64,000 bases of DNA. Origin: an uncultured Chloroflexia bacterium. Lineage in GTDB: Bacteria > Chloroflexota > Limnocylindria > Limnocylindrales > CSP1-4. The DNA is taken from positions 736,001 to 800,000 of the forward strand of contig CAVYIM010000004.1 of NCBI GenBank assembly GCA_963768655.1, given 5' to 3'. The notes under the pieces are model-generated. The model did not search any database. It saw only the letters and a program-made list of their open reading frames with translations, and was not told the origin of the DNA. A program made the position numbers and the translations under genes. Numbering within the stretch: position 1 is the first letter of the stretch; every line of letters starts with the position of its first letter. Below, in pieces: positions 39,974 to 53,597 of the stretch.

Positions 39974-40054
39974 CCCGCCCGCCCTGACGCCCGGTGCGCC
40001 TCCGTGCCTCAGGACCCGGTACCATGCCGTCAGCGGCGCGACGGAGGAGGATCC

Positions 40055-41470
40055 ATGCGGCTCTGGGGCGGTCGGTTCGAAGGCACGACGGACGAGCGGG
40101 TGGCCGACTTCACCCGTTCGATCGAGCTCGACCGCGCGCTGGCGATCGACGACATCGCCGGCTCGATCGCCCATGTTCACGGGCTGGGGCGGGCCGGGCT
40201 GCTCGCGGACGACGAAGTGGCCACGATCGTCGCCGGCCTCGAAGGCCTGCGCGGCGAGGTAGAGACCGGCACGCTGGTCTGGGACCCGGCGCTCGAGGAC
40301 GTGCACATGAACCTGGAGGCGGCGCTGCGGGACCGAATCGGGCCCATCGCCGGACGCCTCCATACCGGACGATCCCGAAACGACCAGGTCGCCACGGACC
40401 TGCGGCTCTGGCTGCGCCGCACGATCGATAACCTGGACGGGGCGATCCTGGACATGGAGCGGGCGCTCGTCGGCGTGGCGGTTCGTGACGGTGAGGCCGT
40501 CATGCCGGGCGCCACACACATCCAGCCGGCCCAGCCGGTGCTGCTGGCACATCACCTGCTGGCCTACGTCGAAATGCTCGAGCGCGACCGCGGTCGACTG
40601 GCGGACTGCCGGCGGCGGACCAACGTCTCGCCCCTGGGCTCGGGCGCTCTGGCGGGCGCGGGCTACCCGTTCGATCGCGAGACGACGGCGAAGGAGCTCG
40701 GGTTCGAAGGCGTGACGGCCAACTCGCTCGACGCCGTAAGCGACCGGGACTTCGTCGTGGAGGCACTGGCCGCCATGGCGCTGTGCATGGTTCACCTGTC
40801 GCGGCTGGCCGAGGAGATCACCTGGTGGTCGAACCCGCGCTTCGGCTTCATCCGGGCGGCCGATTCGTTCTCGACGGGCTCGTCGATGATGCCGAACAAG
40901 AAGAACCCCGACCCGGCCGAGCTGGTGCGGGGCCGGGCGGCGCGCGTGATCGGGTCACTGACGGGGATGCTGGCGCTGCTGAAGGGGCTGCCGCTCGCGT
41001 ATCAGCGCGATCTGCAGGAGGACAAGGCCCCGTTGTTCGAGTCGGCCGCGACGCTGGAGGCGTCGCTCGGCGTCATGGCCGGGATGATCTCGACTCTGAC
41101 CGTCGATCGCGAGCGGATGCGGGCCGCGGCCCAGGAGGGGTACGTCACTGCCACGGCCGTCGCCGACGCCCTCGTCCGGCGGGGAGTGGCTTTTCGGGCG
41201 GCCCACCATATCGTGGCCACGCTGGTCGCCGAAGCGGAGAGGGGCGGCGTCGGGCTCGAAGCGCTGGACGACGCCACGATCGCCGCGACGCTGGCCGCAT
41301 CCGACGACGGCATGGCGGTCGCGATCGTGGGAGATGCCGCGCTCCCCGGGGAGCTGCGCGACGCCGCGGGGCTCGATGGCGCGCTGGCCGGCTGCGACGT
41401 CGTCGGCGGCACAGCGCCTCGTCGTGTGGCCGCGGCCCTGACCGCGGCGAGGGCTCGCCTGGGCGTGTAG
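40055..41470 (+). CDS. argH: argininosuccinate lyase
   Basis: LWGGRF, EDVH, GRSRNDQVATD, GSSMMPNKKNPD, AYQRDLQEDK. Confidence 0.96.
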   Translation: MRLWGGRFEGTTDERVADFTRSIELDRALAIDDIAGSIAHVHGLGRAGLLADDEVATIVAGLEGLRGEVETGTLVWDPALEDVHMNLEAALRDRIGPIAGRLHTGRSRNDQVATDLRLWLRRTIDNLDGAILDMERALVGVAVRDGEAVMPGATHIQPAQPVLLAHHLLAYVEMLERDRGRLADCRRRTNVSPLGSGALAGAGYPFDRETTAKELGFEGVTANSLDAVSDRDFVVEALAAMALCMVHLSRLAEEITWWSNPRFGFIRAADSFSTGSSMMPNKKNPDPAELVRGRAARVIGSLTGMLALLKGLPLAYQRDLQEDKAPLFESAATLEASLGVMAGMISTLTVDRERMRAAAQEGYVTATAVADALVRRGVAFRAAHHIVATLVAEAERGGVGLEALDDATIAATLAASDDGMAVAIVGDAALPGELRDAAGLDGALAGCDVVGGTAPRRVAAALTAARARLGV

Positions 41471-41494
41471 CCACGGCTGCGCGGGCCCGCGGTG

Positions 41495-41580
41495 ACCGAT
41501 CGCCGGCCCGATCGCCGGCAGGCCGCCTGACCGCTCGCCGGCAGGCCGCCTGGCCGCTCGCCAACCAGCCGGGCCGCTCG
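41495..41580. repeat. short GC-rich direct repeats
   Basis: CCG(A/C)TCGCCGGC(AGGCCGCCTG) units repeated. Confidence 0.5.
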
Positions 41581-41720
41581 TTCGGCCGCCGGCGCCGCCA
41601 TCGTCCCGATTTGTCACCGAATCTGCGCCGCTTCGATCTCGCATTCGGTGGCCGCACCGGCGTAGTCTGATGTCGCGCGGCAGGTGGGCCGCGGGTGCGC
41701 CGCGCCAGTCAGGTGGACGG

Positions 41721-41984
41721 ATGAAGCTGCACGAGTACGAGCCGGTCGAGGGAGAGTCCAAACCCCGCGCCGTGCACCGCGAGGGATCGTCTGTGCTGAC
41801 CTGCGCCGCCTGCGGCTGCCGCCTCCTCGCCCGCGAATCTCTGCCGGACGGCGGCGGCTACGGCCCGGACGCGGCCTGGCGCCATTACCACGGCAACACC
41901 CAGGAGACGGACGCCCGGGGCTGCCGGGTCGTGTGCGTTGATCGCCCGCACCGCACGATCCCGGTGGAGCAGCTCGCCTCCTAG
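41721..41984 (+). CDS. small Cys/His-rich putative metal-binding protein (87 aa)
   Basis: CAACGCRL...W.H...DARGC...C...H; GGTGG RBS; TAGTCT -10-like site at 41663. Confidence 0.65.
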   Translation: MKLHEYEPVEGESKPRAVHREGSSVLTCAACGCRLLARESLPDGGGYGPDAAWRHYHGNTQETDARGCRVVCVDRPHRTIPVEQLAS

Positions 41985-42094
41985 CGCCACGCGCCGCGCC
42001 GCCACACGCCGCCACGCACCGGGCCGCCACGCCGGCACGCGCCCGGCCGCCACGCGCGCGCCGCGCCACACTGCCGGTCCCGCCACCCGAGCCC

Positions 42095-42184
42095 CGTCCT
42101 GAACGGCAACCGTCGCGCCACCGCAGCGCCACCGCCGGGTCACTCGACCGGTACTGATTCGGGCGAGCTCGCTACGTACGCTTC
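42095..42184 (+). promoter_or_regulatory. conserved nitrogen-regulon promoter cassette, copy 1 (amt1)
   Basis: CGTCCTGAACG, then GCAAC/GCCAC/GCCAC/GTCAC at 42106, 42117, 42128, 42139; CTGATT(42154)-N17-TACGCT(42177). Confidence 0.85.
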
Positions 42185-42241
42185 GGCCGGCCGCATCGAC
42201 ACGGGTCGTTTGCTGCGGCGTGGAGCGAAGGAGACAACAGC

Positions 42242-43483
42242 GTGAACCCCGCCTCGAGCGCCATCAACTCCGGCGACACCGCCTGGGTCCTGACCTCGGC
42301 CGCGCTCGTCATGCTCATGACGCCGGGCCTGGCTCTGTTCTATGGCGGCCTTGTCCGCCGCAAGAACGTGCTCAGCACGATCATGCACAGCATCTTCATC
42401 CTCGCCCTGGTCAGCGTGACATGGGTTCTGGTCGGCTTCACGCTGGCCTTCGGCAAAGACGTGAACGGCTGGGGAATAATCGGCGGCCTCGACTTCGTCG
42501 GCCTGCGGGGCGTCGGCAAGGATCCGCTCACGCAATACGCGCCTAGCATTCCCGGTTCCGCCTTCATGGCCTTCCAGATGATGTTCGCCGTGATCACGCC
42601 GGCCCTCATCACCGGTGCCTTCGCCGAGCGCAAGCGCTTCAAGGCTTTCGTGCTGTTCTCGCTGCTGTGGACGCTCATCGTCTATTCGCCGATCGCCCAC
42701 TGGGTCTGGGGCGAAGGCGGTTGGCTCCGCAACCTGGGCGTCCTCGACTTCGCCGGCGGCACAGTCGTCCACATCAGCTCGGGTGTCGCGGCCCTCGTCG
42801 CCGCGCTGGTCCTTGGACCGCGGGTCAAGCGCGAGTCGGACCGCTTCGAGCCGCACGACGTCCGCCTGACGGTCATCGGCGCGGGCCTGCTCTGGTTCGG
42901 CTGGTTCGGCTTCAACGGCGGCTCCGCCCTGGCGGCCAACGGCACTGCCGCCAACGCGTTCGTCGTTACGAACACGGCCGCCGGCATGGCGGCCCTCACC
43001 TGGGTCACGATGAGCTGGCTGCACAAGGGCACGCCGAGCGTCGTGGGCGCCGTCGCGGGCGGCGTCGCCGGTCTCGTGGCCATCACCCCCGCGTCGGGGT
43101 TTGTCGACGCGAGCGCCGCGATCATCATCGGCTTCGCGGCCGGTGCGGTCTGCTACAGCGCCATCCTGCTGCGCGAGCGGCTCAAGATCGACGACGCGCT
43201 CGATGTCTGGGCGGTCCACGGCGTCGGCGGCACGCTCGGCGCGATCCTGACGGGTGTATTCGCCGTGGCCGCGGTCGGCGGCGCGTCCGGCCTCGTCGAC
43301 GGCAATCCCGGCCAGGTCGGAACGCAGCTGGTGGCTGTGGCCGCGACCTGGATCTACAGCGGCATCGCCACCTTCATCATCCTCAAGGTAGTCGACTTCT
43401 TCGTCGGGCTTCGCGTCGACGAGGCCGAAGAGGAAGCGGGCCTGGACTCCTCGCAGCATGGCGAGGTGGCCTGGCAGCTCTAG
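42242..43483 (+). CDS. amt: ammonium transporter
   Basis: MTPGLALFYGG, FQMMFA, DFAGGTVVH, WFGWFGFNGGS, DDALDV..VHG, EEAGLD..QHGE. Confidence 0.96.
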   Translation: MNPASSAINSGDTAWVLTSAALVMLMTPGLALFYGGLVRRKNVLSTIMHSIFILALVSVTWVLVGFTLAFGKDVNGWGIIGGLDFVGLRGVGKDPLTQYAPSIPGSAFMAFQMMFAVITPALITGAFAERKRFKAFVLFSLLWTLIVYSPIAHWVWGEGGWLRNLGVLDFAGGTVVHISSGVAALVAALVLGPRVKRESDRFEPHDVRLTVIGAGLLWFGWFGFNGGSALAANGTAANAFVVTNTAAGMAALTWVTMSWLHKGTPSVVGAVAGGVAGLVAITPASGFVDASAAIIIGFAAGAVCYSAILLRERLKIDDALDVWAVHGVGGTLGAILTGVFAVAAVGGASGLVDGNPGQVGTQLVAVAATWIYSGIATFIILKVVDFFVGLRVDEAEEEAGLDSSQHGEVAWQL

Positions 43484-43620
43484 CGGGCGCACACGCCGGG
43501 GCAGCGGCGCGGCCGCGCCGCTCGAGCCGGCACCAATCGGCAACCTCGAACCTTTGAAGGGCCCGCCGAGAGGGCCCTCGAGAACCGCCAGCCGAGCCAG
43601 CGGGCCCGGTCGCCACAACG

Positions 43621-43710
43621 CGTCCCGAACGACAACCCTCGCGCCACCAGAGCGCCACCCGAGGGTCACTCGGTCGTAACTGATTCCCGACGCCTCGCTC
43701 CATACGCTTC
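43621..43710 (+). promoter_or_regulatory. conserved nitrogen-regulon promoter cassette, copy 2 (amt2)
   Basis: CGTCCCGAACG, then ACAAC/GCCAC/GCCAC/GTCAC at 43632, 43643, 43654, 43665; CTGATT(43680)-N17-TACGCT(43703). Confidence 0.85.
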
Positions 43711-43767
43711 CCCGGGCCGCTTTCGCGGCATTCGTCCGTTGCGATTGGGAAGCGAAGGAGTCTCGGC

Positions 43768-44994
43768 GTGATCAATGGTGGCGACACCGCCTGGGTATTG
43801 ACCGCCACGGCGCTGGTCATGTTGATGACGCCCGGTCTGGCCCTCTTCTACGGTGGCCTGGTCCGCCGCAAGAACGTCCTCAGCATCCTCATGCAGTGCA
43901 TGTTCATCCTCGGCCTGGTCAGCGTGACCTGGGTGCTGGTCGGCTACACCCTGGCCTTCGGGCCGGACGTCAACGGCTGGGGCATCATCGGCGGCCTGGA
44001 CAACATCGGCCTCAAGGGCGTCGGTATCGCTCCGGGCCCGTACGCGGCGACCATCCCGGCGACCGCGTTCGCGCTGTTCCAGATGATGTTCGCCATCATC
44101 ACCCCGGCCCTGATCATCGGCGCCTTCGCCGAGCGCAAGCGCTTCAAGGCCTTCGTCCTCTTCGCCTTGCTGTGGAGCCTGCTCGTCTACTCGCCGATCT
44201 GCCACTGGGTCTGGGGCGAGGGCGGCTGGCTGCGCAACATGGGCGTGCTCGACTACGCCGGCGGCACGGTCGTCCACATCAGCTCCGGCGTCGCGGCCCT
44301 GGTGGCGGCGCTCGTCCTGGGCCCGCGCGTCCGGCGCGAGTCCGAGCGCTTCGAGCCCCACGACGTCCGGCTGACGGTCATCGGCGCCGGCATCCTGTGG
44401 TTCGGCTGGTTCGGCTTCAACGGCGGCTCGGCGCTCGCCGCGAACGGCCTCGCCGTCAATGCGGTCCTGGTGACGAACACCGCCGCCGGAATGGGCGCGC
44501 TGACCTGGATGACGATGAGCTGGCTGCACAAGGGTTCGCCGAGCGTCATCGGCGCCGTGTCGGGCGCGATCGCCGGCGAGGTCGGCATCACGCCGGCCTC
44601 CGGCTTCGTCGACCCAAGCTCCGCAATCCTGATCGGCTTCATCGCCGGCGTCGTCTGCTACAGCGCGATCCTGCTGCGCGAGCGCATGAAGATCGACGAC
44701 GCCCTAGACGTCTGGGCTGTCCACGGTGTCGGGGGCACGCTGGGCGTCCTGCTCACCGGCGTCCTGGCGACGACCGCTGTGAATACCGTGGGCCGGGGCT
44801 GGATCGACGGCAACTTCGGCCAGATCGGCATCCAGCTCGTCGCCATCGTCGCCGTGTGGGTCTACAGCGCGGTGGCGACCTTCGTGATACTCAAGCTCGT
44901 GGACGTGGCCGTGGGGCTCCGAGTCGGCGAGGCCGAGGAGGAGGCCGGGCTGGATGCCAGCCAGCACGGCGAGACGGTCGCCTTCCAGAACTGA
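43768..44994 (+). CDS. amt: ammonium transporter paralog
   Basis: Same motifs as the upstream paralog, with DYAGG and GAIAGEV variants. Confidence 0.96.
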   Translation: MINGGDTAWVLTATALVMLMTPGLALFYGGLVRRKNVLSILMQCMFILGLVSVTWVLVGYTLAFGPDVNGWGIIGGLDNIGLKGVGIAPGPYAATIPATAFALFQMMFAIITPALIIGAFAERKRFKAFVLFALLWSLLVYSPICHWVWGEGGWLRNMGVLDYAGGTVVHISSGVAALVAALVLGPRVRRESERFEPHDVRLTVIGAGILWFGWFGFNGGSALAANGLAVNAVLVTNTAAGMGALTWMTMSWLHKGSPSVIGAVSGAIAGEVGITPASGFVDPSSAILIGFIAGVVCYSAILLRERMKIDDALDVWAVHGVGGTLGVLLTGVLATTAVNTVGRGWIDGNFGQIGIQLVAIVAVWVYSAVATFVILKLVDVAVGLRVGEAEEEAGLDASQHGETVAFQN

Positions 44995-45011
44995 GCCGTT
45001 CTGCCTTTCGC

Positions 45012-45059
45012 GAAGGACGGCGCCGCCTTCTCCCCCTCGGGCGGCGCCGTTCTCCTCTT
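45012..45059 (+). terminator. intrinsic terminator-like hairpin after amt2
   Basis: GACGGCGCCGCC...GGCGGCGCCGTT followed by CTCCTCTT. Confidence 0.65.
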
Positions 45060-45102
45060 GCGCGCCGCCCCGTTGCGCGTGAAGCCGATCTGCGAGCCGC
45101 TA

Positions 45103-45296
45103 TCTCGCCAGACTTGCCTGGAGTGGAAGTTGGGAGCGACAAGGGGCCGGCGTAAGGGGTGCGGGATCCGGTGCCGAGCAGGCGCCGTCTCGATTTCACG
45201 CTCGACGACCCCGACACCCGGACAGAGCCAGGGCTGACCCGGTCGAGTGAGGCCCGCAATCAGCGCCAACTTTCACCTGGGGCAAGTTTGGCCAGA
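45103..45296. mobile_element. MITE-like element with ~30-bp imperfect terminal inverted repeats, copy A
   Basis: Left TCTCGCCAGACTTGCCTGGAGTGGAAGTTGG; reverse complement of right end TCTGGCCAAACTTGCCCCAGGTGAAAGTTGG; related to 58509-58721. Confidence 0.55.
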
Positions 45297-45324
45297 AGTG
45301 GGCTCGCGAATGCGCCGTGCCGTG

Positions 45325-45393
45325 GTCGCGCCGCCGTCGCGCCCGGGTCGCGCCGCCGTCGCGCCCGGGTCGCGGGTCCGCGCCTGGGTCGCG
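45325..45393. repeat. tandem GTCGCGCC(CGG/GCC) repeats
   Basis: 11/22-bp units GTCGCGCCGCCGTCGCGCCCGG. Confidence 0.6.
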
Positions 45394-45404
45394 AACGGGC
45401 GAAA

Positions 45405-45494
45405 CGTCCCGAACGGCAACTGTCGTGTCACCGGAGCGTCACCGAAAGTCCACCCTCGCGCTACTGATTTGGGCCGACTCCTTCCATAGACTTC
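45405..45494 (+). promoter_or_regulatory. conserved nitrogen-regulon promoter cassette, copy 3 (small peptide gene)
   Basis: CGTCCCGAACG, then GCAAC/GTCAC/GTCAC/TCCAC at 45416, 45427, 45438, 45449; CTGATT(45464)-N17-TAGACT(45487). Confidence 0.85.
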
Positions 45495-45547
45495 CAGTCA
45501 ATGAAACGGGACCGAGGGTCCCAGAGCTCAGCCGAAGGAGCTAAGAA

Positions 45548-45631
45548 ATGATCGTCGCAGCCGCTTTCCTCAGTTTCGGTCTCCTGGTCGTGGCCTGGTT
45601 CGTCGCTCCGTCCCACGCGGCGGCCGAGTAG
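45548..45631 (+). CDS. 27-aa single-pass membrane peptide MIVAAAFLSFGLLVVAWFVAPSHAAAE
   Basis: GAAGGAG RBS 7 nt upstream; GC3-biased codons; own promoter cassette and terminator; below the ORF-track size cut-off. Confidence 0.75.
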   Translation: MIVAAAFLSFGLLVVAWFVAPSHAAAE

Positions 45632-45725
45632 CAGCGGTCGTTTCCGCGGCCTCGACCGGTAGCAGTGCCGGTCTCCCGGGCGCCTCGCCTCTGACGCGCC
45701 ACCCAACAGGCAAACCCACACGCCG

Positions 45726-45768
45726 GCCCGCGCACCTTTTCGGCAGGTTGCGCGGGCTTCGTGTTTGT
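45726..45768 (+). terminator. intrinsic terminator after the peptide gene
   Basis: GCCCGCGCACCT...AGGTTGCGCGGGC followed by TTCGTGTTTGT. Confidence 0.7.
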
Positions 45769-45951
45769 GGGCGGCGGGGGACCCCACGGAATCCGGAGGC
45801 GCGGCGCCAACCATCCCGTCATTTACCAACGGGGGCAGCACGAGAATGACTTCTCGGGCAAGATCGCGGACCCACCCAAATCCTGCGGCGACGTCAGGGC
45901 CTCCAGGTTCTGGGAGCCGCCGCTAGGTTCGCGGGCCGGCCGGGCCCCGCG

Positions 45952-46040
45952 CCGCCGCCCGATCGCGCCAGTGCCGCCGCCCCGGCGCCCGATCGCGCCA
46001 GTGCCGCCGCGCCGCGCCCGCGCCACGCGCCAGTGCCGCG
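45952..46040. repeat. direct repeats downstream of the response regulator
   Basis: CGCCCGATCGCGCCAGTGCCGCCGC twice plus a partial third copy. Confidence 0.6.
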
Positions 46041-46099
46041 CCCCACGCAACGCGCCGCCGCCCCGCCCCCCTGCCGCCCCCGCCGCTCGGCGCCGCGCG

Positions 46100-46813
46100 T
46101 TACTCCACGTCTTCGAGCCGGTAGCCCACGCCGCGGACCGAGGCCGGCACCGGCGCGCCGGACTCCTCCAGCTTGGAGCGCAGGCGTGCCAGATGAGGTT
46201 TGAGCCACTGCGGATCGGGGTTCGGCTCACCGGGCCAGCCCGCGGCGAGCAGCGAGCTGTGCGAGACCACGTGGCCGGCCGCGGCGACGAGCGAGGCGAG
46301 CAGGCTGTACTCGGTGCGGGTCAGGACGAGCTCCGCGCCGGCGACGGAGGCTGTGTGGCGGCCGCGGTCGAGGACGATCGAGCCCCACCGCAGCTCCCCG
46401 GCGCCGCGTGGCTCCGCCTCGTTGCCGCGTCGGCGCATCACGGCCCGGATGCGGGCCAGCAGCTCCTGCTTGCCGAACGGCTTGACCACGTAGTCGTCCG
46501 CGCCCGTGTCCAGCGCCTCGACCTTGGCGCGCTCGTCGGCCTCGCCCGTGAGGACGATGATCGGCGTCTGCGACATGCGCCGGATAGCGCGGCAGACCTC
46601 GACGCCGTCGAGCCCGGGCATGGCCAGGTCCAACAGCACCAGGTCCGGGCGTTCCTCGGAGAAGCGGCGCAGCGCGGCGTTGCCGTCGTACGCGGTGACG
46701 ACGCGATGTCCGGCGCGACCGACCAGGGCCGACACGGCGCCCACCATGGCCGGCTCGTCGTCGACGACGAGGATCAGCAGGCTCGCCTCCGTCACCGGAC
46801 CCGTGGTGCTCAA
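46100..46813 (-). CDS. OmpR-family response regulator (KdpE/PhoB-like)
   Basis: LVVDDE, VLLDLAMP (Asp intact), GADDYVVKPF, LTRTEY, LARLRSKL, VRGVGY. Confidence 0.92.
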   Translation of the reverse strand: MSTTGPVTEASLLILVVDDEPAMVGAVSALVGRAGHRVVTAYDGNAALRRFSEERPDLVLLDLAMPGLDGVEVCRAIRRMSQTPIIVLTGEADERAKVEALDTGADDYVVKPFGKQELLARIRAVMRRRGNEAEPRGAGELRWGSIVLDRGRHTASVAGAELVLTRTEYSLLASLVAAAGHVVSHSSLLAAGWPGEPNPDPQWLKPHLARLRSKLEESGAPVPASVRGVGYRLEDVE

Positions 46814-46861
46814 CTTGTGGCCTCCGCTCCAATCTGCGCTGACGCGCTGAGCTGCCCTTCG

Positions 46862-48292
46862 CTACCCGTCCGAGCCGGCCTCGGACATGACGCCGGCCTC
46901 GGGGCCGTCGCCGTCCCCCGAAGTGTCGCGCATCTCGGGCACCGCAACCATAAAGCGACTGCCGCCGTACCCATTTGATTCCAACCAGACACGTCCGCCC
47001 ATAGCGTTCATGAGCCGCCGGGCCGCGTAGAGCCCGATTCCGGAGCCTCTCGGTCGCGTCGCCGTCCGGACATACGCGTCGAAGACCGACTGCCATTCGG
47101 CCTCGGGGATCCCGGGCCCGTCGTCGGTGACGTAGATCCTGACTTCGCCATCCCCTCGCGATGCCCCGACGCTGACCGACCCGCCGTCGGGCGAATACTT
47201 CACCTCGTTCTCCAGCAGATGCTCCAGGACCTGGCGGAAGCGCCCCTCGTCGCCCACGCCCATCAGCTCCTCCCAGGTGCCGGTGCGGCGCAGCGGATGC
47301 TCTCGCAGCAGCGGCGACATCTCGCCGATCGTGTCGTTCACGGCGCGAGCGACGTCGAACGGGAGCCGCGCCAGACCCGCCGCCAGTCCCTCGCCGCGGA
47401 CCGATGCCAGGATCGAATCCACCAGCCGATCCAGGCGCGTCACCTGCCCGATCGCCTGGCTGCGCCACTCTTCGACGAGCGTCGGGTCGGGCCCGGCGCC
47501 GCTGCCCGCAGCGTCGGCGGCCGCGTCCGACAGCAGATCCACATACGCCCGCACGACCGCCAGCGGCGTCCGCAGCTCGTGCGTCACGACCGCCAGCAGC
47601 TCGGCCCGGGCGCCGTCGAGAGCCGTGAGGGTCTGGAGCTGCTCTTCCGCCTCGGCCTGGAGCCGCCCTTTCTCGACGATGCCGCCCAGGAGCGCCCCGA
47701 TCGTGACCAGGAACTCGACCTCCTCCGGGGAGAAGAGGCGGGTTTCGATCGCCTGGACGTTGATGACGCCGATGATCGTGTCGTTCCACGGCAGCGGCAC
47801 CGAGAGCATCGAGACGAACTGCGACTGGTCGAAGCCGGGCACCCACTTGAAGCGCGGATCGACCCGAACGTCGGGCGAGGCGACCGGCCGGCCGAGCATC
47901 GCGGCGCGACCCGTCAGGCCTTCGCCCAGGCCCAGCGTGACGCGTCCGATCTGATCGCGGTCGAGGCCGTTCGTGGCGGCCAGCCGAAGGCACGACTCGT
48001 CGCGCTCCATGAGGTAGACGGAGCAGACCTCGACGTCCAGGGCGGTCGTGGTTCGATCCACGATCGTCCGCATCAGCTCGTCCCAGTTGCGCGCCGTGGT
48101 GAGCAGCTTGGCGAACTCGTGCAGGAACTCGAGCTCGCGCAGCTTGCGCTCGGCGTCGAACGGCGCGTCGACCTTCGGGCCCGAGAGTCCGGTCGAGCCC
48201 GGAGGTCCTTCCGGCTCGAGTCCCTGAGCAGTGGCAGGTGCGGGCTCGGGTCGCGGGCCGCGCTCGCTTTGCTCGCCTTCGGGCCCGTTCAT
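46862..48292 (-). CDS. soluble GAF-domain sensor histidine kinase
   Basis: GAF (EVCSVYL...ATNGL...GEGLTG...PRFK), THELRTPL, LLENEVKYS, DDGPGI, GSGIGL; no TM segment; 2-nt gap after argG. Confidence 0.9.
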   Translation of the reverse strand: MNGPEGEQSERGPRPEPAPATAQGLEPEGPPGSTGLSGPKVDAPFDAERKLRELEFLHEFAKLLTTARNWDELMRTIVDRTTTALDVEVCSVYLMERDESCLRLAATNGLDRDQIGRVTLGLGEGLTGRAAMLGRPVASPDVRVDPRFKWVPGFDQSQFVSMLSVPLPWNDTIIGVINVQAIETRLFSPEEVEFLVTIGALLGGIVEKGRLQAEAEEQLQTLTALDGARAELLAVVTHELRTPLAVVRAYVDLLSDAAADAAGSGAGPDPTLVEEWRSQAIGQVTRLDRLVDSILASVRGEGLAAGLARLPFDVARAVNDTIGEMSPLLREHPLRRTGTWEELMGVGDEGRFRQVLEHLLENEVKYSPDGGSVSVGASRGDGEVRIYVTDDGPGIPEAEWQSVFDAYVRTATRPRGSGIGLYAARRLMNAMGGRVWLESNGYGGSRFMVAVPEMRDTSGDGDGPEAGVMSEAGSDG

Positions 48293-48294
48293 CG

Positions 48295-49581
48295 CTACCT
48301 CGCGGCCGTGGCCGGCGCGTCGTAGACCTTCGTCGGCAGCTCGGCGAGCAGCGGCTCGGTCCACGTCCAGGCCGCGCCGTAGTGGCGACCCACGGCCCCG
48401 TGCCGGGCCGCCTCCGTCCGCAGCGGAAGCCCGAAGATCTCGATGAACCCGACGGCGCTGGCGTGGTCGAAGGCATCGTCCGCGTCGTACGTCGCCAGAG
48501 CCTTGTCGTACAGGGAGAGCGGGCTGCGCCGGCCGACCACGATGGCGTTGCCGTGGTCGAGCCGGACCCGGACGTCGCCGCTGACGACGCGCTGGCTGCT
48601 GGCGGCGTAGCCGCGCAGGTCGCGGTGCAGGGCGCTGAACCACAGCCCGTCGTAGGTGAGCTGGGCCAGCTCGTCGGCCACCGTGCGATTGAAGCGGAGC
48701 GTGTCCTTGGTGAGAGTCAGCCCCTCCAGGGCGCGGTGGGCCCGGTGGATGACCGTCGCGGCGGGCGCCTCGTAGATCTCGCGGCTCTTGATGCCGACCA
48801 GGCGGTCCTCGACGTGGTCCACGCGACCGACGCCGTGGGCGCAGGCGAGGTCGTGCAGCTTCTCGACCAGCACGACCGGATCGAGCCGCTCGCCGTCGAG
48901 AGACACGGGGACGCCGCCCTCGAAGCCGATCACGATCTCGACCGGATCGGGCGCCGCCTCAGGGTCGACGGTCCAGCGGTAGACGTCCGCTCGTGGCGCC
49001 GTCCAGGGATCCTCGAGGATGCCGGCTTCGATGGAGCGACCCCACAGGTTCACGTCGATCGAGTAGATCGAGTCCTTCGTGATGGTGATCTCGATGTTGC
49101 GGGCCTTCGCGTACTCGATCTCCTGCTCGCGGGACAGACCCATGCCGACGCGCATCGGGGCGATGACGGCCAGCGATGGATCGAGGGCGTGCGTCGCGAC
49201 ATCGAAGCGGACCTGGTCGTTGCCCTTGCCGGTGCAGCCGTGGGCGACCGCGTCGGCCCCTTCCTTGTGAGCGACCTCGACCAGGAGCTGGGCGATCATC
49301 GGCCGGGCCATGGCAGTGGCCAGGGGATACACGCCCTGGTAGAGCGCCCCGGCCTGGACGTGGGGCCAGCAGAAGTCGCGCACGAAGCGCTCGCGGCCGT
49401 CGACGACGTAGGCCCGGCTGGCGCCGGCGCTGATGGCCCGGCGATCGACGTCCTCCTTGAGCACGCCGCCGCCGAGATCGACGGTCAGAGTGACCACCTC
49501 GACGTTGTACTGCTCGCGCAGCCAGGCGACGGCGACCGAGGTGTCGAGTCCACCGGAATAGGCGAGCACCACCTTGTTCAT
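48295..49581 (-). CDS. argG: argininosuccinate synthase
   Basis: VVLAYSGGLDTS, HGCTGKGNDQVRF, RLVGIKSREIYEAP. Confidence 0.96.
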   Translation of the reverse strand: MNKVVLAYSGGLDTSVAVAWLREQYNVEVVTLTVDLGGGVLKEDVDRRAISAGASRAYVVDGRERFVRDFCWPHVQAGALYQGVYPLATAMARPMIAQLLVEVAHKEGADAVAHGCTGKGNDQVRFDVATHALDPSLAVIAPMRVGMGLSREQEIEYAKARNIEITITKDSIYSIDVNLWGRSIEAGILEDPWTAPRADVYRWTVDPEAAPDPVEIVIGFEGGVPVSLDGERLDPVVLVEKLHDLACAHGVGRVDHVEDRLVGIKSREIYEAPAATVIHRAHRALEGLTLTKDTLRFNRTVADELAQLTYDGLWFSALHRDLRGYAASSQRVVSGDVRVRLDHGNAIVVGRRSPLSLYDKALATYDADDAFDHASAVGFIEIFGLPLRTEAARHGAVGRHYGAAWTWTEPLLAELPTKVYDAPATAAR

Positions 49582-50120
49582 CGAGGAGCCTCCGAGTGAA
49601 CGAACAGTCGTGCGTTCGGCCCGGCCGACGCGTCCGACGATTGGAATGTCCCGAAGCGGATCAGCCACCGCTCGAGGGCGGCTTCGGTCTCGAACAGGAC
49701 CAGCACGGTGTTGTCGCCCGCAAGGGTGCCGACCTGATCGGCCAGGCTCGACTGATCGATCGCCTGGGCGATCGCGCCGGCCGACCCGGGCGTCGCCACG
49801 AGCACCAGGCTCAGGCCGCTGCGACCTATCTGGACGGGGATGTCAGCGAGCAGCCTGCGGAGCCGGGCGTCGTAGGCGTTTCCCGTGGCGGCCGTCTCCG
49901 GAGTAGCGTAGACGTGGCGGTCGCCGCGCGGCACCTTCACCAGGCCCATCTCCGCGGCGTCTCGGCTGACCGTCGCCTGGGTGACCTCGAAGCCTCTCTC
50001 GCGGAGAAGCTCGACCAGCTCCTCCTGGCTCCCGATCGGCGAATGCGAGATCAGATCGAGCAGGGCGCGCTGCCGGCGCTGCTTGACGTTCGGCTGGCTG
50101 CCGTTGATGGCCATGATCAC
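49578..50120 (-). CDS. argR: arginine repressor
   Basis: SQEELV..L...G..VTQATVSRD, TPGSA, GTLAGD. Confidence 0.93.
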   Translation of the reverse strand: MIMAINGSQPNVKQRRQRALLDLISHSPIGSQEELVELLRERGFEVTQATVSRDAAEMGLVKVPRGDRHVYATPETAATGNAYDARLRRLLADIPVQIGRSGLSLVLVATPGSAGAIAQAIDQSSLADQVGTLAGDNTVLVLFETEAALERWLIRFGTFQSSDASAGPNARLFVHSEAPR

Positions 50121-50129
50121 GATCCGATC

Positions 50130-50951
50130 TCAGGCCGTCGCGGGGGTTTCGGTGGCGGCGGGCGCCGCGGGCGCTGCCAGAGTGGCATGCCCCGCCGTGA
50201 TGCGCGTGCCGAACGCCGCATCGTGCAGTGCCCGGCTCAGGGCGTGCGGATCGCCGGAATCGCAGATGACGGCCTCGGCTCCGGGCCAGCTCACGGCCTG
50301 GAGCGCGGCCCTGATCTTGGGCACCATGCCGCCCTTGATCACGCCGTCGGCGATGAGCTGCTCGGCTTCGTCCGCGGTCATGGTGGCGAGCTTCCGACCC
50401 GCCGCGTCACGGATGCCGTCGACATCGGTCATCAGCACCAGCTGGCGGGCGCCCAGGCCGGCGGCTATCCCGGCTGCGGCGTCGTCGGCGTTGACGTTGC
50501 AGACGATGCCCTGCTCGTCGCGGGCGAGTGGAGCGACGACGGCCACCTCTCCGGCCACGAGCAGCGCGTCCAGGAAGTCGCGCCGCAGCCCCACGACATG
50601 GGCCACGAGCCCCAGGCCGGGCACGCGTTCGGCGATCATCAGGCCGCCGTCGACGCCCGAAAGGCCCACGGCGTCCACGCCGCGGTCGCGCAGGTCCGAA
50701 ACGAGCTCCGAATTCACGACGCCCCGGAGCACGGCCGCGGCGACGTCCAGCGCCGCCTGGTCCGTGACCCGGAGGCCGCCCTCGAAGCGGCTGGGCACGC
50801 CCAGGCGCTCGAGCCATTCGGTGATCCGCTTTCCGCCGCCGTGGACGAGCACGACCGGCCGCTCGCGCGCGACCGAGGCGACCTCGTCGAGGACGTGCGC
50901 CTGGTCGGCCAGCGTCGTGCCGCCGAGCTTGAGGACGAGGACTTCGCTCAC
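50130..50951 (-). CDS. argB: acetylglutamate kinase
   Basis: VLKLGG, VHGGG, GLRVTD, NVNADD, MTDVDG, GGMVPK. Confidence 0.93.
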   Translation of the reverse strand: MSEVLVLKLGGTTLADQAHVLDEVASVARERPVVLVHGGGKRITEWLERLGVPSRFEGGLRVTDQAALDVAAAVLRGVVNSELVSDLRDRGVDAVGLSGVDGGLMIAERVPGLGLVAHVVGLRRDFLDALLVAGEVAVVAPLARDEQGIVCNVNADDAAAGIAAGLGARQLVLMTDVDGIRDAAGRKLATMTADEAEQLIADGVIKGGMVPKIRAALQAVSWPGAEAVICDSGDPHALSRALHDAAFGTRITAGHATLAAPAAPAATETPATA

Positions 50952-52387
50952 GTGGTGTACTCCGCGTTCTCGATGACGTAACCCTCGGTCAGGTCGCAGC
51001 CGAATGCCTCGCCGGATCCCTTGCCCAGGCCGAGGTCCAGGCGGATGAGCACCTCCGGCGCGTCCATCGCCTTTCGAACGGCCTCGCGGTCGAAGGGGAG
51101 GGGAGCGCCGGCGGCGAAGACCAGGCACCCGGCAATGCCGATGCTCAGCCGCTCCAGGTCGAACTCGGGTCCGCGGCCGGCGCGCGGCATGGCCTCGGTG
51201 TGGTGCAGGCCGGCCGCCTCGAGGAGCTCCTCGTCGGGCAGGCGGGCGTTTCCGGCGGCGCTGGCCACGCGTCCCCAGTTCGGGTCGCGGCCGTGGACAG
51301 CGGCCTTGAGGAGGCTGCTGGCGACGACGGAGCGGGCGACCGCCCGGGCGTCGTGATCGTCGACGGCGCCGCTGACCTGGCACGTGATGAGGGTCGAGGC
51401 GCCCTCACCGTCGGCGGCCTGCTGGCGCGCCAGGGATCGCGCCACTGCTTCGATCGCCGCGCCGAGCGCGGCGGCTTCGGGGCTGGCCGTTGCCACGGGC
51501 CTCGCTCGGGCCGCGCCCGACGCGAGCAGGAAGACGGTGTCGTTGGTGCTCGTGTCGCCGTCGACGCTCAGTTGATTCCACGTCCGCTGGACTATTGGAG
51601 TGAGCAGCCCGAAGAGCGTGTCCGGCGCGGCTGTCGCGTCGGTCAGGATGACGCCCAGCATCGTGGCCATGCGGGGGTGGATCATCCCCACGCCCTTGGC
51701 GATGCCGGAGACGGTCACCCGTACCGGCGAGCCATCCGGGCCGGGCAACTCGACGCAGGCCGTGGCGAGCTTGATCTTCGTGTCGGTGGTCATCATCGCC
51801 CCCGCCACGGCCGCGAGGGCTTCGGCTGTCGCGGCGAGCTGCGGGACCAGCCGCGCGATCCCGTCGCGGATCTTCACCGTGGGCAGCCGTACGCCGATGA
51901 CGCCAGTGGAGAGTGCAAGGGTCCGTTCGGCTCGCGTCCCGAGCGCGGCAGCGACCGCCTTGCAGACCTCGGCTTGATCGGTGTCTCCTTCCACGCCCGT
52001 GGCCGCGTTCGCTGCGCCGGCCGTCACGACGATCGCGTCCGCCCAGCCGAATCGGCCGCCGCCGCCGATCTCGGTGGCGTTGAGGTGGGCCTGAGAGACG
52101 CGGATGGGAGCCGCCACGACCTGGTTGCGGGTGAAGACGGCGGCCGCGGCCGCGGGCCCGCGGAGAGTGGCGATTATTCCCAGATCCGGGCGCCCCGAGG
52201 CCTTGATGCCGGCGGCCGCGGCGCCGGCCCGGAAGCCGCCGGGCAGCACGGCCCGCTCTTCGATCGGCGGCAGCGCGACAGGAAGAGCCTCGAGAGCGGC
52301 GAGGTGGCCGTCTCCGGTGGCGCTGGACACGGCGCCGGACACCGGGCCGCCAACCGGGGCCGAAGGATCGAGTGCTCCGGGTTGCAT
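50948..52387 (-). CDS. argJ: ornithine acetyltransferase
   Basis: GIKASGRPDL, STGVIG, MTTDT, KGVGMIHPRMATML, DGDTSTND, DGEGAS, DPNWGR, GCDLTEGYV.ENAEYTT. Confidence 0.95.
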   Translation of the reverse strand: MQPGALDPSAPVGGPVSGAVSSATGDGHLAALEALPVALPPIEERAVLPGGFRAGAAAAGIKASGRPDLGIIATLRGPAAAAAVFTRNQVVAAPIRVSQAHLNATEIGGGGRFGWADAIVVTAGAANAATGVEGDTDQAEVCKAVAAALGTRAERTLALSTGVIGVRLPTVKIRDGIARLVPQLAATAEALAAVAGAMMTTDTKIKLATACVELPGPDGSPVRVTVSGIAKGVGMIHPRMATMLGVILTDATAAPDTLFGLLTPIVQRTWNQLSVDGDTSTNDTVFLLASGAARARPVATASPEAAALGAAIEAVARSLARQQAADGEGASTLITCQVSGAVDDHDARAVARSVVASSLLKAAVHGRDPNWGRVASAAGNARLPDEELLEAAGLHHTEAMPRAGRGPEFDLERLSIGIAGCLVFAAGAPLPFDREAVRKAMDAPEVLIRLDLGLGKGSGEAFGCDLTEGYVIENAEYTT

Positions 52388-52427
52388 GGGCTGTAGCTTC
52401 CTTACGCTCGGCGCGGCTGCGGCGTGG

Positions 52428-53597
52428 CTAGGGTGCGATCGGGTACTGTTCGAGCCCCGTTGTCTCGGGCAGGCCGAAGAGGACGTTGAGGGCCTGGACC
52501 GCCTGCCCGGCCGCCCCCTTGACCAGGTTGTCGATGACGCCCAGCGCCAGGATGCGGCCGCTGCGCGGATCGACCCGGCACCACACCCGGCACATGTTGC
52601 TGCCATAGACGTGCTTGGTGGCCGGCGGATCGGTGACGACCTGGACGAACGGCTCGTCGCGATAGGCCTCCGCGTACAGCGCGTCCAGCTCCGCCTGGGT
52701 GACGGGGCGGGTCGGCCGCACATGGCAGCTGACGAGGATTCCACGCGTCATCGGAATGAGGTGCGGCAGGAAATCAACCACGGCTACGCCCGGGTTGGCG
52801 TCGCGGCTGCCGAGCGCGCCGCGCTCTCCCTGCTGCTGGAGCTCCTGCTCCATCTCGGCGGTGTGGCGGTGGGTGAACATGCCGTAGGCCTTGACGCTCT
52901 CGTTGATCTCGGAGAAGAGCAGATCGGGCTTGGGCTCGCGGCCCGCCCCCGACACCCCGCTCTTGGCATCGACTGCGAGATCGCCGATCAGCCCGGCCCG
53001 GGCCAGCGGGGCGAGGGTCAGGATCGTCGCGGTCGGGTAGCAGCCGGGCAGCCCGATGACGCTCGAATTCTGCTCGGCGGCGGCGCGGATCTCCTCCCGG
53101 TGCAACTCCGGGAGGCCGTATACGGCCCGAGCCAGGAGCTCGGGCGCTGGATGGTCGAGCTTGTACCAGCGCGGATAGTCGGCCGGATCGTGGAGCCGGA
53201 AGTCCGGCCCGACGTCCAGCAGGGCGGAGCCGCGGGCCGTGATCTCGGCGGCCATCTCGGCGGCCACGCCGTGCGGCAGCGCTGTGAAGATGGCGTCGGC
53301 CTCGGGCATGGCCGCATCGATGACCAGGCCCGATGCGGCGAGGTGCGGATGAGACTCCGCGATCGAGACGTTGTCGCGGTTGCGGCCGTACAGGCCTGCC
53401 AGCCGGACGCGCGGGTGGTTCAGCAGCAGCCGAACCAGCTCGCCGCCTGCATAGCCGGTGGCGCCGACGATGCCGACGGTGATCGTCCGGCTGCCCTGTC
53501 GAGCGCGGACCGTGCGAGCCCCCAGCGAGGCAGGCGCAGGCTTCTTCCCGGAGCTGGCTGTCGAAACGCCGTCGGGCGTGGGTCTGGTGGAGGTCAT
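52428..53597 (-). CDS. argC: N-acetyl-gamma-glutamyl-phosphate reductase
   Basis: GATGYAG, ALPHG, DFRL, YGLPE, PGCYPT, SGVSGAGR, HRH..E, DNLVKGAAGQA. Confidence 0.95.
   Translation of the reverse strand: MTSTRPTPDGVSTASSGKKPAPASLGARTVRARQGSRTITVGIVGATGYAGGELVRLLLNHPRVRLAGLYGRNRDNVSIAESHPHLAASGLVIDAAMPEADAIFTALPHGVAAEMAAEITARGSALLDVGPDFRLHDPADYPRWYKLDHPAPELLARAVYGLPELHREEIRAAAEQNSSVIGLPGCYPTATILTLAPLARAGLIGDLAVDAKSGVSGAGREPKPDLLFSEINESVKAYGMFTHRHTAEMEQELQQQGERGALGSRDANPGVAVVDFLPHLIPMTRGILVSCHVRPTRPVTQAELDALYAEAYRDEPFVQVVTDPPATKHVYGSNMCRVWCRVDPRSGRILALGVIDNLVKGAAGQAVQALNVLFGLPETTGLEQYPIAP

Follow-up and report, generated by a model that had tools for sequence, protein, structure and literature searches.

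How a bacterium without PII proteins could adjust ammonium uptake to its nitrogen supply is the question raised by a locus in a 64,000-nucleotide stretch of DNA (here called the window; G+C ~70%) from an uncultured peat-soil member of the Limnocylindrales (Chloroflexota, class Limnocylindria), whose metagenome-assembled genome comprises 3.37 Mb and is 88.6% complete. Bacterial nitrogen control is usually explained via PII proteins, and members of the Limnocylindria abound in the microbiomes of peat, fens, and lakes. In the window, two ammonium transporter genes, amt1 and amt2, and an open-reading frame (ORF) for a 27-amino-acid (27-aa) membrane peptide face a soluble GAF-domain histidine kinase and an OmpR/PhoB-family response regulator. 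An original prediction made from the DNA letters proposed that the kinase reads nitrogen status directly and that the pair activates ammonium uptake through a promoter cassette common to the three facing genes. Our analysis leans, by a little better than an even chance, toward a two-component system, specific to this lineage, by which bacteria without PII regulate their ammonium assimilation. All five genes named in the prediction are present in the window, as follows:

42242-43483, + strand, amt1, ammonium transporter of 413 aa (Pfam Ammonium_transp, E 1.2e-130)
43768-44994, + strand, amt2, ammonium transporter of 408 aa (Pfam PF00909, E 6.5e-129; TIGR00836)
45548-45631, + strand, ORF of the 27-aa membrane peptide (tblastn conservation, codon-position entropy, and hydropathy)
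46100-46813, - strand, OmpR/PhoB-family response regulator (Pfam Response_reg and Trans_reg_C)
46862-48292, - strand, soluble GAF-HisKA-HATPase_c histidine kinase (Pfam, NCBIfam, and PDB matches)

Both transporters are full-length against the Ammonium_transp profile (positions 1-398 and 1-397 of 399) and above the TIGR00836 cut-off, and the whole-genome PF00909 search returned these two matches, making amt1 and amt2 the only Amt genes in the genome. The prediction had noted the absence of a glnK/PII gene beside either amt, and a PF00543 search of the whole 88.6%-complete genome found none elsewhere. Across the order, a PII match came up in just 2 of 121 genomes, and across the class in none of 32 sampled genomes (the window's own excluded), compared to 101 of the 301 genomes in the phylum sample. 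The absence of PII is less special than the prediction implied, because 200 of the 301 sampled Chloroflexota genomes have no match either and the absence is widespread in the phylum rather than peculiar to this lineage. GlnE was not found in the genome, and the Sigma54_activat family gave only weak partial matches there, of at most 32 bits.

Each of the three facing genes is preceded by a copy of the same promoter cassette:

42095-42182, + strand, cassette 1, upstream of amt1 (six 11-bp boxes; -10 TACGCT at 42177-42182)
43621-43708, + strand, cassette 2, upstream of amt2 (six 11-bp boxes; -10 TACGCT at 43703-43708)
45405-45492, + strand, cassette 3, upstream of the peptide gene (six 11-bp boxes; -35-like CTGATT; -10 TAGACT at 45487-45492)

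The three upstream regions align over ~94 nt with 74% mean column identity, the cassette itself measuring ~90 nt, and a cassette profile run against the 3.37-Mb genome matched at these three places only (E 2e-23 to 2e-24, with the next best at E 0.76). With 51 copies from relatives added to the window's three, 54 gap-free aligned copies were available, in which the conserved positions form six 11-bp units, CGnnAC(C/T) (consensus CGnnACC), arranged as direct repeats. The AC is invariant in five of the six units with an exact 11-bp period (columns 18/19, 29/30, 40/41, 51/52, and 62/63), while the sixth, upstream-most box is more degenerate (CGTCCC). The last box (CGCTACTGATT) sits over the -35 position, which reads CTGATT, a weak -35, and an invariant TA..CT hexamer (TACGCT or TAGACT, alignment columns 86-91) lies 17 nt past it. 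No consensus sigma-70-like promoter was detectable across 41400-46200, which, together with CTGATT at the -35 position, fits activator-dependent promoters. Repeats of ~11 bp in direct orientation, a proximal repeat over the -35, and a poor -35 hexamer are the geometry of a PhoB-type (class II) activator promoter, and by this comparison the cassette has the predicted architecture of a PhoB/OmpR-type activator site. A scan of 6.7 million positions with the box matrix returned nine three-box and six four-box arrays, all inside the three cassettes, and no array of at least three consecutive boxes anywhere else in the 3.37-Mb genome. Two-box matches before a P-type ATPase and other unrelated genes were scattered and were judged to be chance, and a sub-threshold match to 6C RNA (28.8 bits, where the gathering score is 47) was dismissed from an Rfam search of 41000-46300 that gave no match above threshold.

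The only other site of note, a related one, is at gltB. Among 6.7 million positions of the genome, the sequence most like the 17-nt left end of the cassette, leaving aside the cassettes themselves, falls in the gltB promoter. There, the block CC.A.TCGCAACCTT.GCAACC is conserved in 14 aligned upstream regions, the genome's own and 13 others of the genus, and holds a two-box site directly upstream of a good -35, overlying its upstream edge. The spacers flanking the cassettes also carry short G+C-rich direct repeats, at 41480-41560, 41985-42090, 45310-45380, and 45930-46080; examples are CGATCGCGCCAGTGCCGCCG, present twice at ~45960-46010, and GCCGCCACGC-like units repeated at 41985-42090.

The response regulator falls in the OmpR/PhoB family by its Response_reg (E 1.8e-32) and Trans_reg_C (E 2.2e-14) matches and is intact, as predicted, with the acidic pocket VVDDE, the acceptor Asp in LLDLAMPG, and the conserved Lys in VVKPF. 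No NCBIfam equivalog cut-off was reached; MtrA came closest, with 190 bits where 300 are required. The recognition helix, WLKPHLARLRSKL, occurs once in the genome and departs from the usual family consensus, and its pattern, GWP.E.DPD..WLKPHLARLR.K, is kept without change by 13 of the 14 regulators that were aligned, which come from several genera, both paralogue groups described below, and a sister family.

The kinase comprises a disordered N-terminus, a PtsP-type GAF domain (residues ~47-212), HisKA, and HATPase_c, with no transmembrane segment (maximum 19-residue hydropathy of 1.29). Its HisKA (E 1.4e-11) and HATPase_c (E 1.2e-22) matches in Pfam place it among the HisKA-class histidine kinases, and the translation carries an H-box, VVTHELRTPL, and G-boxes, DDGPGI...GSGIGL. 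The predicted kinship of the GAF domain was borne out by its alignment to positions 5-171 of 748 of NCBIfam PRK11061 (100.9 bits, E 5.6e-29) and to the solved PtsP GAF structures 3trc (67 bits) and 3ci6 (64 bits), both in the range E 1e-16 to 1e-17. A cGMP phosphodiesterase GAF reached 32 bits, the PtsP type was ahead of the other classes by at least 30 bits, and NifA-like GAFs also matched weakly. By sequence comparison, the sensor domain is thus assigned to the PtsP type rather than to other GAF classes. In the accessible text of the reports on PtsP, its GAF domain binds glutamine, which is inhibitory, and alpha-ketoglutarate (2-oxoglutarate), which is stimulatory, and in this way sets autophosphorylation (PMC13104625, PMC4848567). 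A homologous-protein search with the kinase returned close relatives only, under generic names and with no functional lead. A different family of the Chloroflexota has distant homologues (33-36% identity) located 2-3 kb from an amt gene, but their partners are stand-alone receivers and a CBS protein, and they were set aside as too weak.

Beyond the kinase gene lies a set of arginine biosynthesis genes, and a further one closes the cluster on its far side:

48295-49668, - strand, argG, argininosuccinate synthase (Pfam, junction sequence; bounds of the mechanical ORF, the true start being probably later, at ~49600)
49578-50120, - strand, argR, arginine repressor (Pfam)
50130-53597, - strand, argB, argJ, and argC, the last at 52428-53597 (Pfam)
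40004-41470, + strand, argH, argininosuccinate lyase (Pfam), bounding the cluster on the far side

The genes argC-J-B-R-G, the kinase, and the regulator form a single co-directional string on the - strand that faces amt1, amt2, and the peptide gene on the + strand, a context that the prediction had not included. Because the junction sequences place the kinase ATG 2 nt past the argG stop and the regulator start 48 nt past the kinase stop, the pair is very probably co-transcribed with the arg genes as the tail of their operon. With argH on the opposite strand beyond the amt cluster, the nitrogen cluster looks as if it had been inserted at an argG-argH junction.

Two small proteins are encoded at the locus. 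The product of the third cassette-bearing gene, MIVAAAFLSFGLLVVAWFVAPSHAAAE, is a predicted single-helix membrane peptide with a hydropathy of 2.53, and the ORF has its own Shine-Dalgarno sequence (GAAGGAG) in addition to its own cassette. The peptide pattern (M/V)IAAAF.SF..LVV.WF.APS(R/H) and the Shine-Dalgarno sequence are kept in 35 of 36 tblastn matches, and the summed entropy by codon position is 8.25/5.40/20.22. Because the peptide is conserved and the variation is concentrated at third codon positions, the alignments identify this ORF as a real gene under coding selection. The second small protein and its promoter, which fall just short of the span described in the prediction (42095-48292) and went unmentioned there, are located as follows:

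41721-41984, + strand, 87-aa Cys/His-rich ORF (tblastn, 22-sequence alignment)
41602-41668, + strand, promoter of the Cys/His ORF, with the short box array CGTCCCGATTTGTCACC, its third box degenerate here, and a -10 TAGTCT at 41663-41668

Its 22 aligned homologues share the invariant residues C28, C31, G32, C33, R34, L35, H55, D64, R66, G67, C68, R69, C72, and H77, and the protein matches no Pfam or NCBIfam family. An AlphaFold2 model built from the 22-row alignment had a mean predicted local distance difference test score (pLDDT) of 55.6, too poor for a fold search, and matches in the ESM Atlas were to unnamed 'hypothetical protein' clusters only (0.90-0.91). Two to three boxes at 11-bp spacing are found in the Cys/His promoter in the window's genus and in four others, for example CGTCCCGATCCGACACTGAATCGACACC. 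The Cys/His profile detected a single copy in each of 74 of the family's 78 other genomes, a distribution shared with the full-length kinase, which likewise occurs in 74 of these 78. Among the 75 genomes made up of those 74 and the window's own, the Cys/His ORF lies at most 15 kb from a kinase match in 58 (at most 3 kb in 45 and 3-15 kb in 13) and farther in 5, and in the remaining 12 it is on a different contig or there is no kinase match. In the streamlined, ~1-Mb sister family f2, PII, the full-length GAF kinase, and the Cys/His ORF are each absent from all 42 genomes; this family was considered as a negative control and found unusable, since amt is absent alongside the GAF kinase in all five genomes tested for it. 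In one genus, a conserved 29-aa membrane peptide (...WW(R/K)GP(E/D)IP...) follows the Cys/His ORF (L052:9235-9321, - strand, and the matching place in L053) and may correspond to the 27-aa peptide encoded here (...AWFVAPSR...).

The gene order was then compared at related loci. The closest relatives of the kinase are at 47 loci (75-95% identity) from fen, peat, and lake metagenome-assembled genomes, and the order argG-kinase-regulator is present at all of those that reach far enough, which makes it the most constant adjacency. The peptide and/or the cassette was found near this trio at 34 of the 47, directly or behind a ~7-kb insert, and three more have three cassettes just outside the fetched stretch; eight loci end too early to judge, and the remaining two are weighed below. 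The insert was read in one relative (L014:10336-16182), where cydA-cydB-cydD-cydC, encoding a cytochrome bd oxidase and an ABC exporter, lie between the regulator and the peptide gene over ~7 kb. It is absent in the window, and the spacing of matches shows a gap of similar length at that place in many other close relatives.

Outside the genus, two groups of the kinase family can be told apart by identity, one linked to argG (57-67%) and another at 46-52%, and both adjoin nitrogen genes, namely a gltB paralogue, amt (L055, L058), or the Cys/His ORF (L052, L053, L057, L058, L061). At L052, L053, L057, L058, and L059, the Cys/His ORF next to the kinase and regulator has the best three-box array of the 8-18-kb stretch immediately before it, and at L061 the best array immediately precedes the operon of a paralogous kinase, which suggests autoregulation. 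Arrays are borne by amt in the window and at L055, by the gltB paralogue at L054 and L059, and by a Cys/His ORF-gltB pair at L059, and they accompany this family of kinases also at loci where argG is not a neighbor (L052, L053, L057, L058, L061). The cassette model matched in 10 genomes of other genera; in 6 of the 10, the sole match is 0.4-8.4 kb from the kinase on the same contig, and in 4 it is on another contig. A sister family of the same class has argH-argG-kinase-regulator facing gltB (L077). The prediction had proposed a comparison of synteny, and across genera the kinase, the regulator, and box-bearing nitrogen genes do stay close despite rearrangement. The persistent linkage of box arrays to this two-component family through these rearrangements, together with the invariant recognition helix, supports but does not prove binding of the boxes by the regulator.

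The gltB gene beside the kinase and regulator in other genera and in the sister family is a divergent second copy, 37-47% identical to the window genome's own gltB (C5:168858), and the window's genus seems to have no such paralogue at the locus:

L054:9399-14191, divergent gltB
L055:5587-9966, divergent gltB
L057:10828-15288, divergent gltB
L058:10342-14590, divergent gltB
L059:7006-8271, divergent gltB
L077:10680-14993, divergent gltB

Two further arrangements were each seen in a single genus. At L055:4635-5294 (- strand), an extra OmpR-type regulator, 39% identical to that of the window, lies between amt and the next box array; it lacks the acidic DD pocket, has RP for KP, is orphan, atypical, and GlnR-like, and has no orthologue in the window's genome. 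In the other genus, represented by genome G099, there are two kinase paralogues, of which the argG-linked one (L060:7130-8311) has no detectable neighboring regulator gene and the other keeps both a regulator and a Cys/His ORF, and the two kinases may feed one regulator.

These results can be assembled into a mechanism. The GAF domain of the kinase would read an intracellular nitrogen-status metabolite, by analogy with PtsP most likely glutamine as an inhibitory and/or 2-oxoglutarate as a stimulatory ligand. When nitrogen is short, the kinase would phosphorylate the OmpR-type regulator, as gene adjacency and the intact catalytic and acceptor motifs suggest, and the phosphorylated regulator, probably as up to three dimers arranged head-to-tail, would fill the six boxes of the observed array. 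Because the last repeat overlies a poor -35, the bound regulator is proposed to recruit RNA polymerase in the manner of PhoB. The predicted output would be the expression of amt1, amt2, and the 27-aa peptide and, from the shorter array, of the 87-aa Cys/His protein, while the gltB site, with its good -35, may serve for modulation and not as a switch. Since the pair is very probably transcribed as the tail of argC-J-B-R-G, control by ArgR/arginine probably extends to the amount of sensor.

A number of observations weigh against this proposal, the first of which concern the extent of the regulon. The prediction had expected box matches before glnA and before urea, nitrate, or amino-acid genes, and the genome-wide scan did not bear this out: the 14 aligned glnA upstream regions of the genus, own included, contain no CGnnACC boxes, and no box arrays precede urea, nitrate, or amino-acid genes in the genome. 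In breadth, the regulon thus falls far short of a global nitrogen regulon. The boxes at gltB are spaced 9 bp apart rather than 11 bp, and for this reason the site may belong to another protein. In genus g3, the Cys/His ORF is unlinked to the kinase. The cassette-model matches in other genera are weak (E 5e-7 to 8e-4, with a model built from one genus). The two close relatives set aside above (L016 and L038; genomes G404 and G405) have no cassettes, no peptide, and no amt genome-wide, yet have kept argG, the kinase, and the regulator, and also retain the Cys/His ORF with boxes beside the regulator. The original prediction is thus supported in part, but the pair is not dedicated to amt alone, because these two genomes lost amt and cassettes and kept the pair. 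The last two points, the many OmpR-family proteins of the genome and the arginine operon, each lead to a different explanation of the locus.

Upstream of glnA itself (own start at 21301 on C3; L103-L116), there is an invariant GCCAC.ATA ~60-70 nt before the start, with GCCACAATA in 13 of the 14 regions. An AGACTTC-like sequence is present on the opposite strand upstream of both glnA and gltB, which points to TAGACTTCC as a strong -10 region of general use within the genus.

The best-surviving alternative, which we consider unlikely but give about one chance in five, is that the cassette is bound by a different OmpR-family regulator, of PhoB/PhoP type or another of the ~15 Trans_reg_C proteins, and that the kinase-regulator pair is merely a feature of the arg neighborhood that controls something else. 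The boxes end in CACC, like actinobacterial PHO boxes. With 16 Trans_reg_C matches in the genome, they could be bound by some other protein of the OmpR family. In Streptomyces, according to the accessible text of two reports, PhoP and GlnR, both of the OmpR family, share the amtB and glnA promoters (PMC2691820, PMC3561978), where they compete (PMC3561978), and a similar box could therefore serve a phosphate regulator. The constancy of the argG-kinase-regulator adjacency and the retention of the pair in the two genomes without amt and cassettes also agree with this explanation. It is opposed by the arrays that track the kinase family where argG is not adjacent, by the array directly upstream of the paralogous kinase operon at L061, by a recognition helix that stays invariant while gene order changes, and by the absence of arrays elsewhere in the genome, for example at phosphate genes.

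Nearly as probable, though still improbable, is that the pair does bind the cassettes while the signal read by its GAF domain is arginine, an intermediate of the arginine pathway, a cyclic nucleotide, the redox state, or a partner protein, in which case ammonium uptake would be tuned to arginine synthesis and not to nitrogen status in general. The operon context, with the kinase ATG 2 nt after the argG stop in a string that contains argR, fits arginine as a signal as much as glutamine or 2-oxoglutarate, and the argG-kinase-regulator order recurs in all far-enough-reaching close loci and in the sister family (L077). GAF domains moreover bind many ligands, and those of cGMP phosphodiesterases and NifA-like proteins were among the weak matches. 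What favors a nitrogen-status signal is the lead of at least 30 bits held by PtsP-type GAFs, the nature of the targets, which are ammonium uptake and glutamate synthase (GOGAT) genes and not arg genes, and the paralogous pairs elsewhere, which are not arg-linked yet have the same boxes and the same kind of target.

A more far-reaching version of the two-component model is also conceivable, in which the kinase, the regulator, and both small proteins form a complete PII-independent nitrogen control system. The kinase would sense glutamine/2-oxoglutarate directly, and the small proteins would act after translation, the peptide gating the Amt channels in place of GlnK and the Cys/His protein, as a putative metal-binding protein, throttling GOGAT or glutamine synthetase (GS) or feeding back on the kinase. 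Purifying selection on both small genes, the boxes before both, and the spread of the Cys/His gene, as wide in the family as that of the kinase, are compatible with this version, and we regard it as doubtful, at roughly one chance in eight. Small inhibitor proteins in cyanobacteria act comparably to the role proposed for the Cys/His protein. The notion that the cassette is a by-product of tandem amt promoter duplication or a small repeated or mobile element, with no dedicated regulator and an incidental 11-bp period, draws on amt1 and amt2 being tandem paralogues and on the full-length cassette occurring only three times, all within 3.4 kb, and is very improbable given that the third copy precedes an unrelated peptide gene, that box positions are invariant in 54 copies with variable spacers, that in other genera the Cys/His ORF and gltB have box arrays before them that lack the rest of the cassette, and that Rfam gave no match above threshold.

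The analysis extends the original prediction in four respects, namely the arg-operon context, the coding selection on the peptide in relatives, the Cys/His ORF with its boxes, and the boxes of the gltB paralogues. No description of such a system was found in the literature searched, a coverage that left out most subscription journals. Taken singly, the two-component system, the OmpR-type activator array, and the PtsP-type GAF are all familiar types of component, and what is new, as far as we can tell, is their combination, its place in PII-lacking lineages, and the two small regulated proteins. If the two-component model is correct, a metabolite-sensing GAF kinase replaces the PII/NtrB step and drives ammonium uptake through an OmpR-type activator with a small, clean regulon. 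This would provide a directly testable model of nitrogen sensing for an uncultured and ecologically important lineage, a compact promoter-regulator-sensor set that could be rebuilt in a heterologous host, and a defined regulatory context for two small proteins with no assigned function.

The actinobacterial system is among the closest known ones. GlnR is an orphan whose atypical receiver works independently of phosphorylation, and it is not known to have a cognate kinase; its box is an 11-nt unit of GTnAC-type consensus, and actinobacteria keep amtB-glnK-glnD. In the accessible text of the reports on this system, GlnR and PhoP act as OmpR/PhoB-family regulators at the amtB and glnA promoters (PMC2691820, PMC3561978). 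To that extent the window is similar, with an OmpR/PhoB-family regulator, predicted to bind, and direct-repeat boxes upstream of amt in a high-GC organism. It differs from GlnR in having an adjacent kinase and an intact receiver pocket, and from the amtB-glnK-glnD arrangement in that no PII was found, and it is accordingly neither a GlnR system nor an amtB-glnK operon.

NtrB takes its signal via PII, and NtrC is a sigma-54 enhancer-binding AAA+ protein. The system proposed here resembles NtrB-NtrC in pairing a cytoplasmic kinase with a response regulator that would activate amt and nitrogen genes under nitrogen limitation, but it is set apart from that class by the absence of PII, by a winged-helix OmpR regulator without an AAA+ domain, and by a sigma-70-type -10. 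The Geobacter pair GnfL/GnfM was considered as a relative and rejected, since in the accessible text of the report it consists of a PAS kinase and a sigma-54 activator and is not related (PMC2995071). The free-living 'Candidatus Pelagibacter ubique' is described, in the available part of the source, as responding to nitrogen limitation without GlnB, GlnK, GlnD, or NtrBC (PMC3870248). This organism is from another phylum, and no GAF kinase paired with an OmpR regulator is mentioned in that part of its description.

With PtsP (EI-Ntr), the kinase shares the same type of GAF sensor by sequence, but the output of PtsP is a phosphoenolpyruvate (PEP)-dependent relay to NPr and EIIA-Ntr, whereas here the GAF is fused to a HisKA/HATPase kinase that is predicted to feed a transcription factor. 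In PhoR-PhoB control, pho boxes are tandem repeats of 11-bp period over a missing or weak -35, and the regulator replaces -35 recognition. The geometry of the cassette matches that of PhoB promoters, with the differences that the proposed signal and regulon concern ammonium rather than phosphate uptake and that it contains six repeats instead of the canonical two to four.

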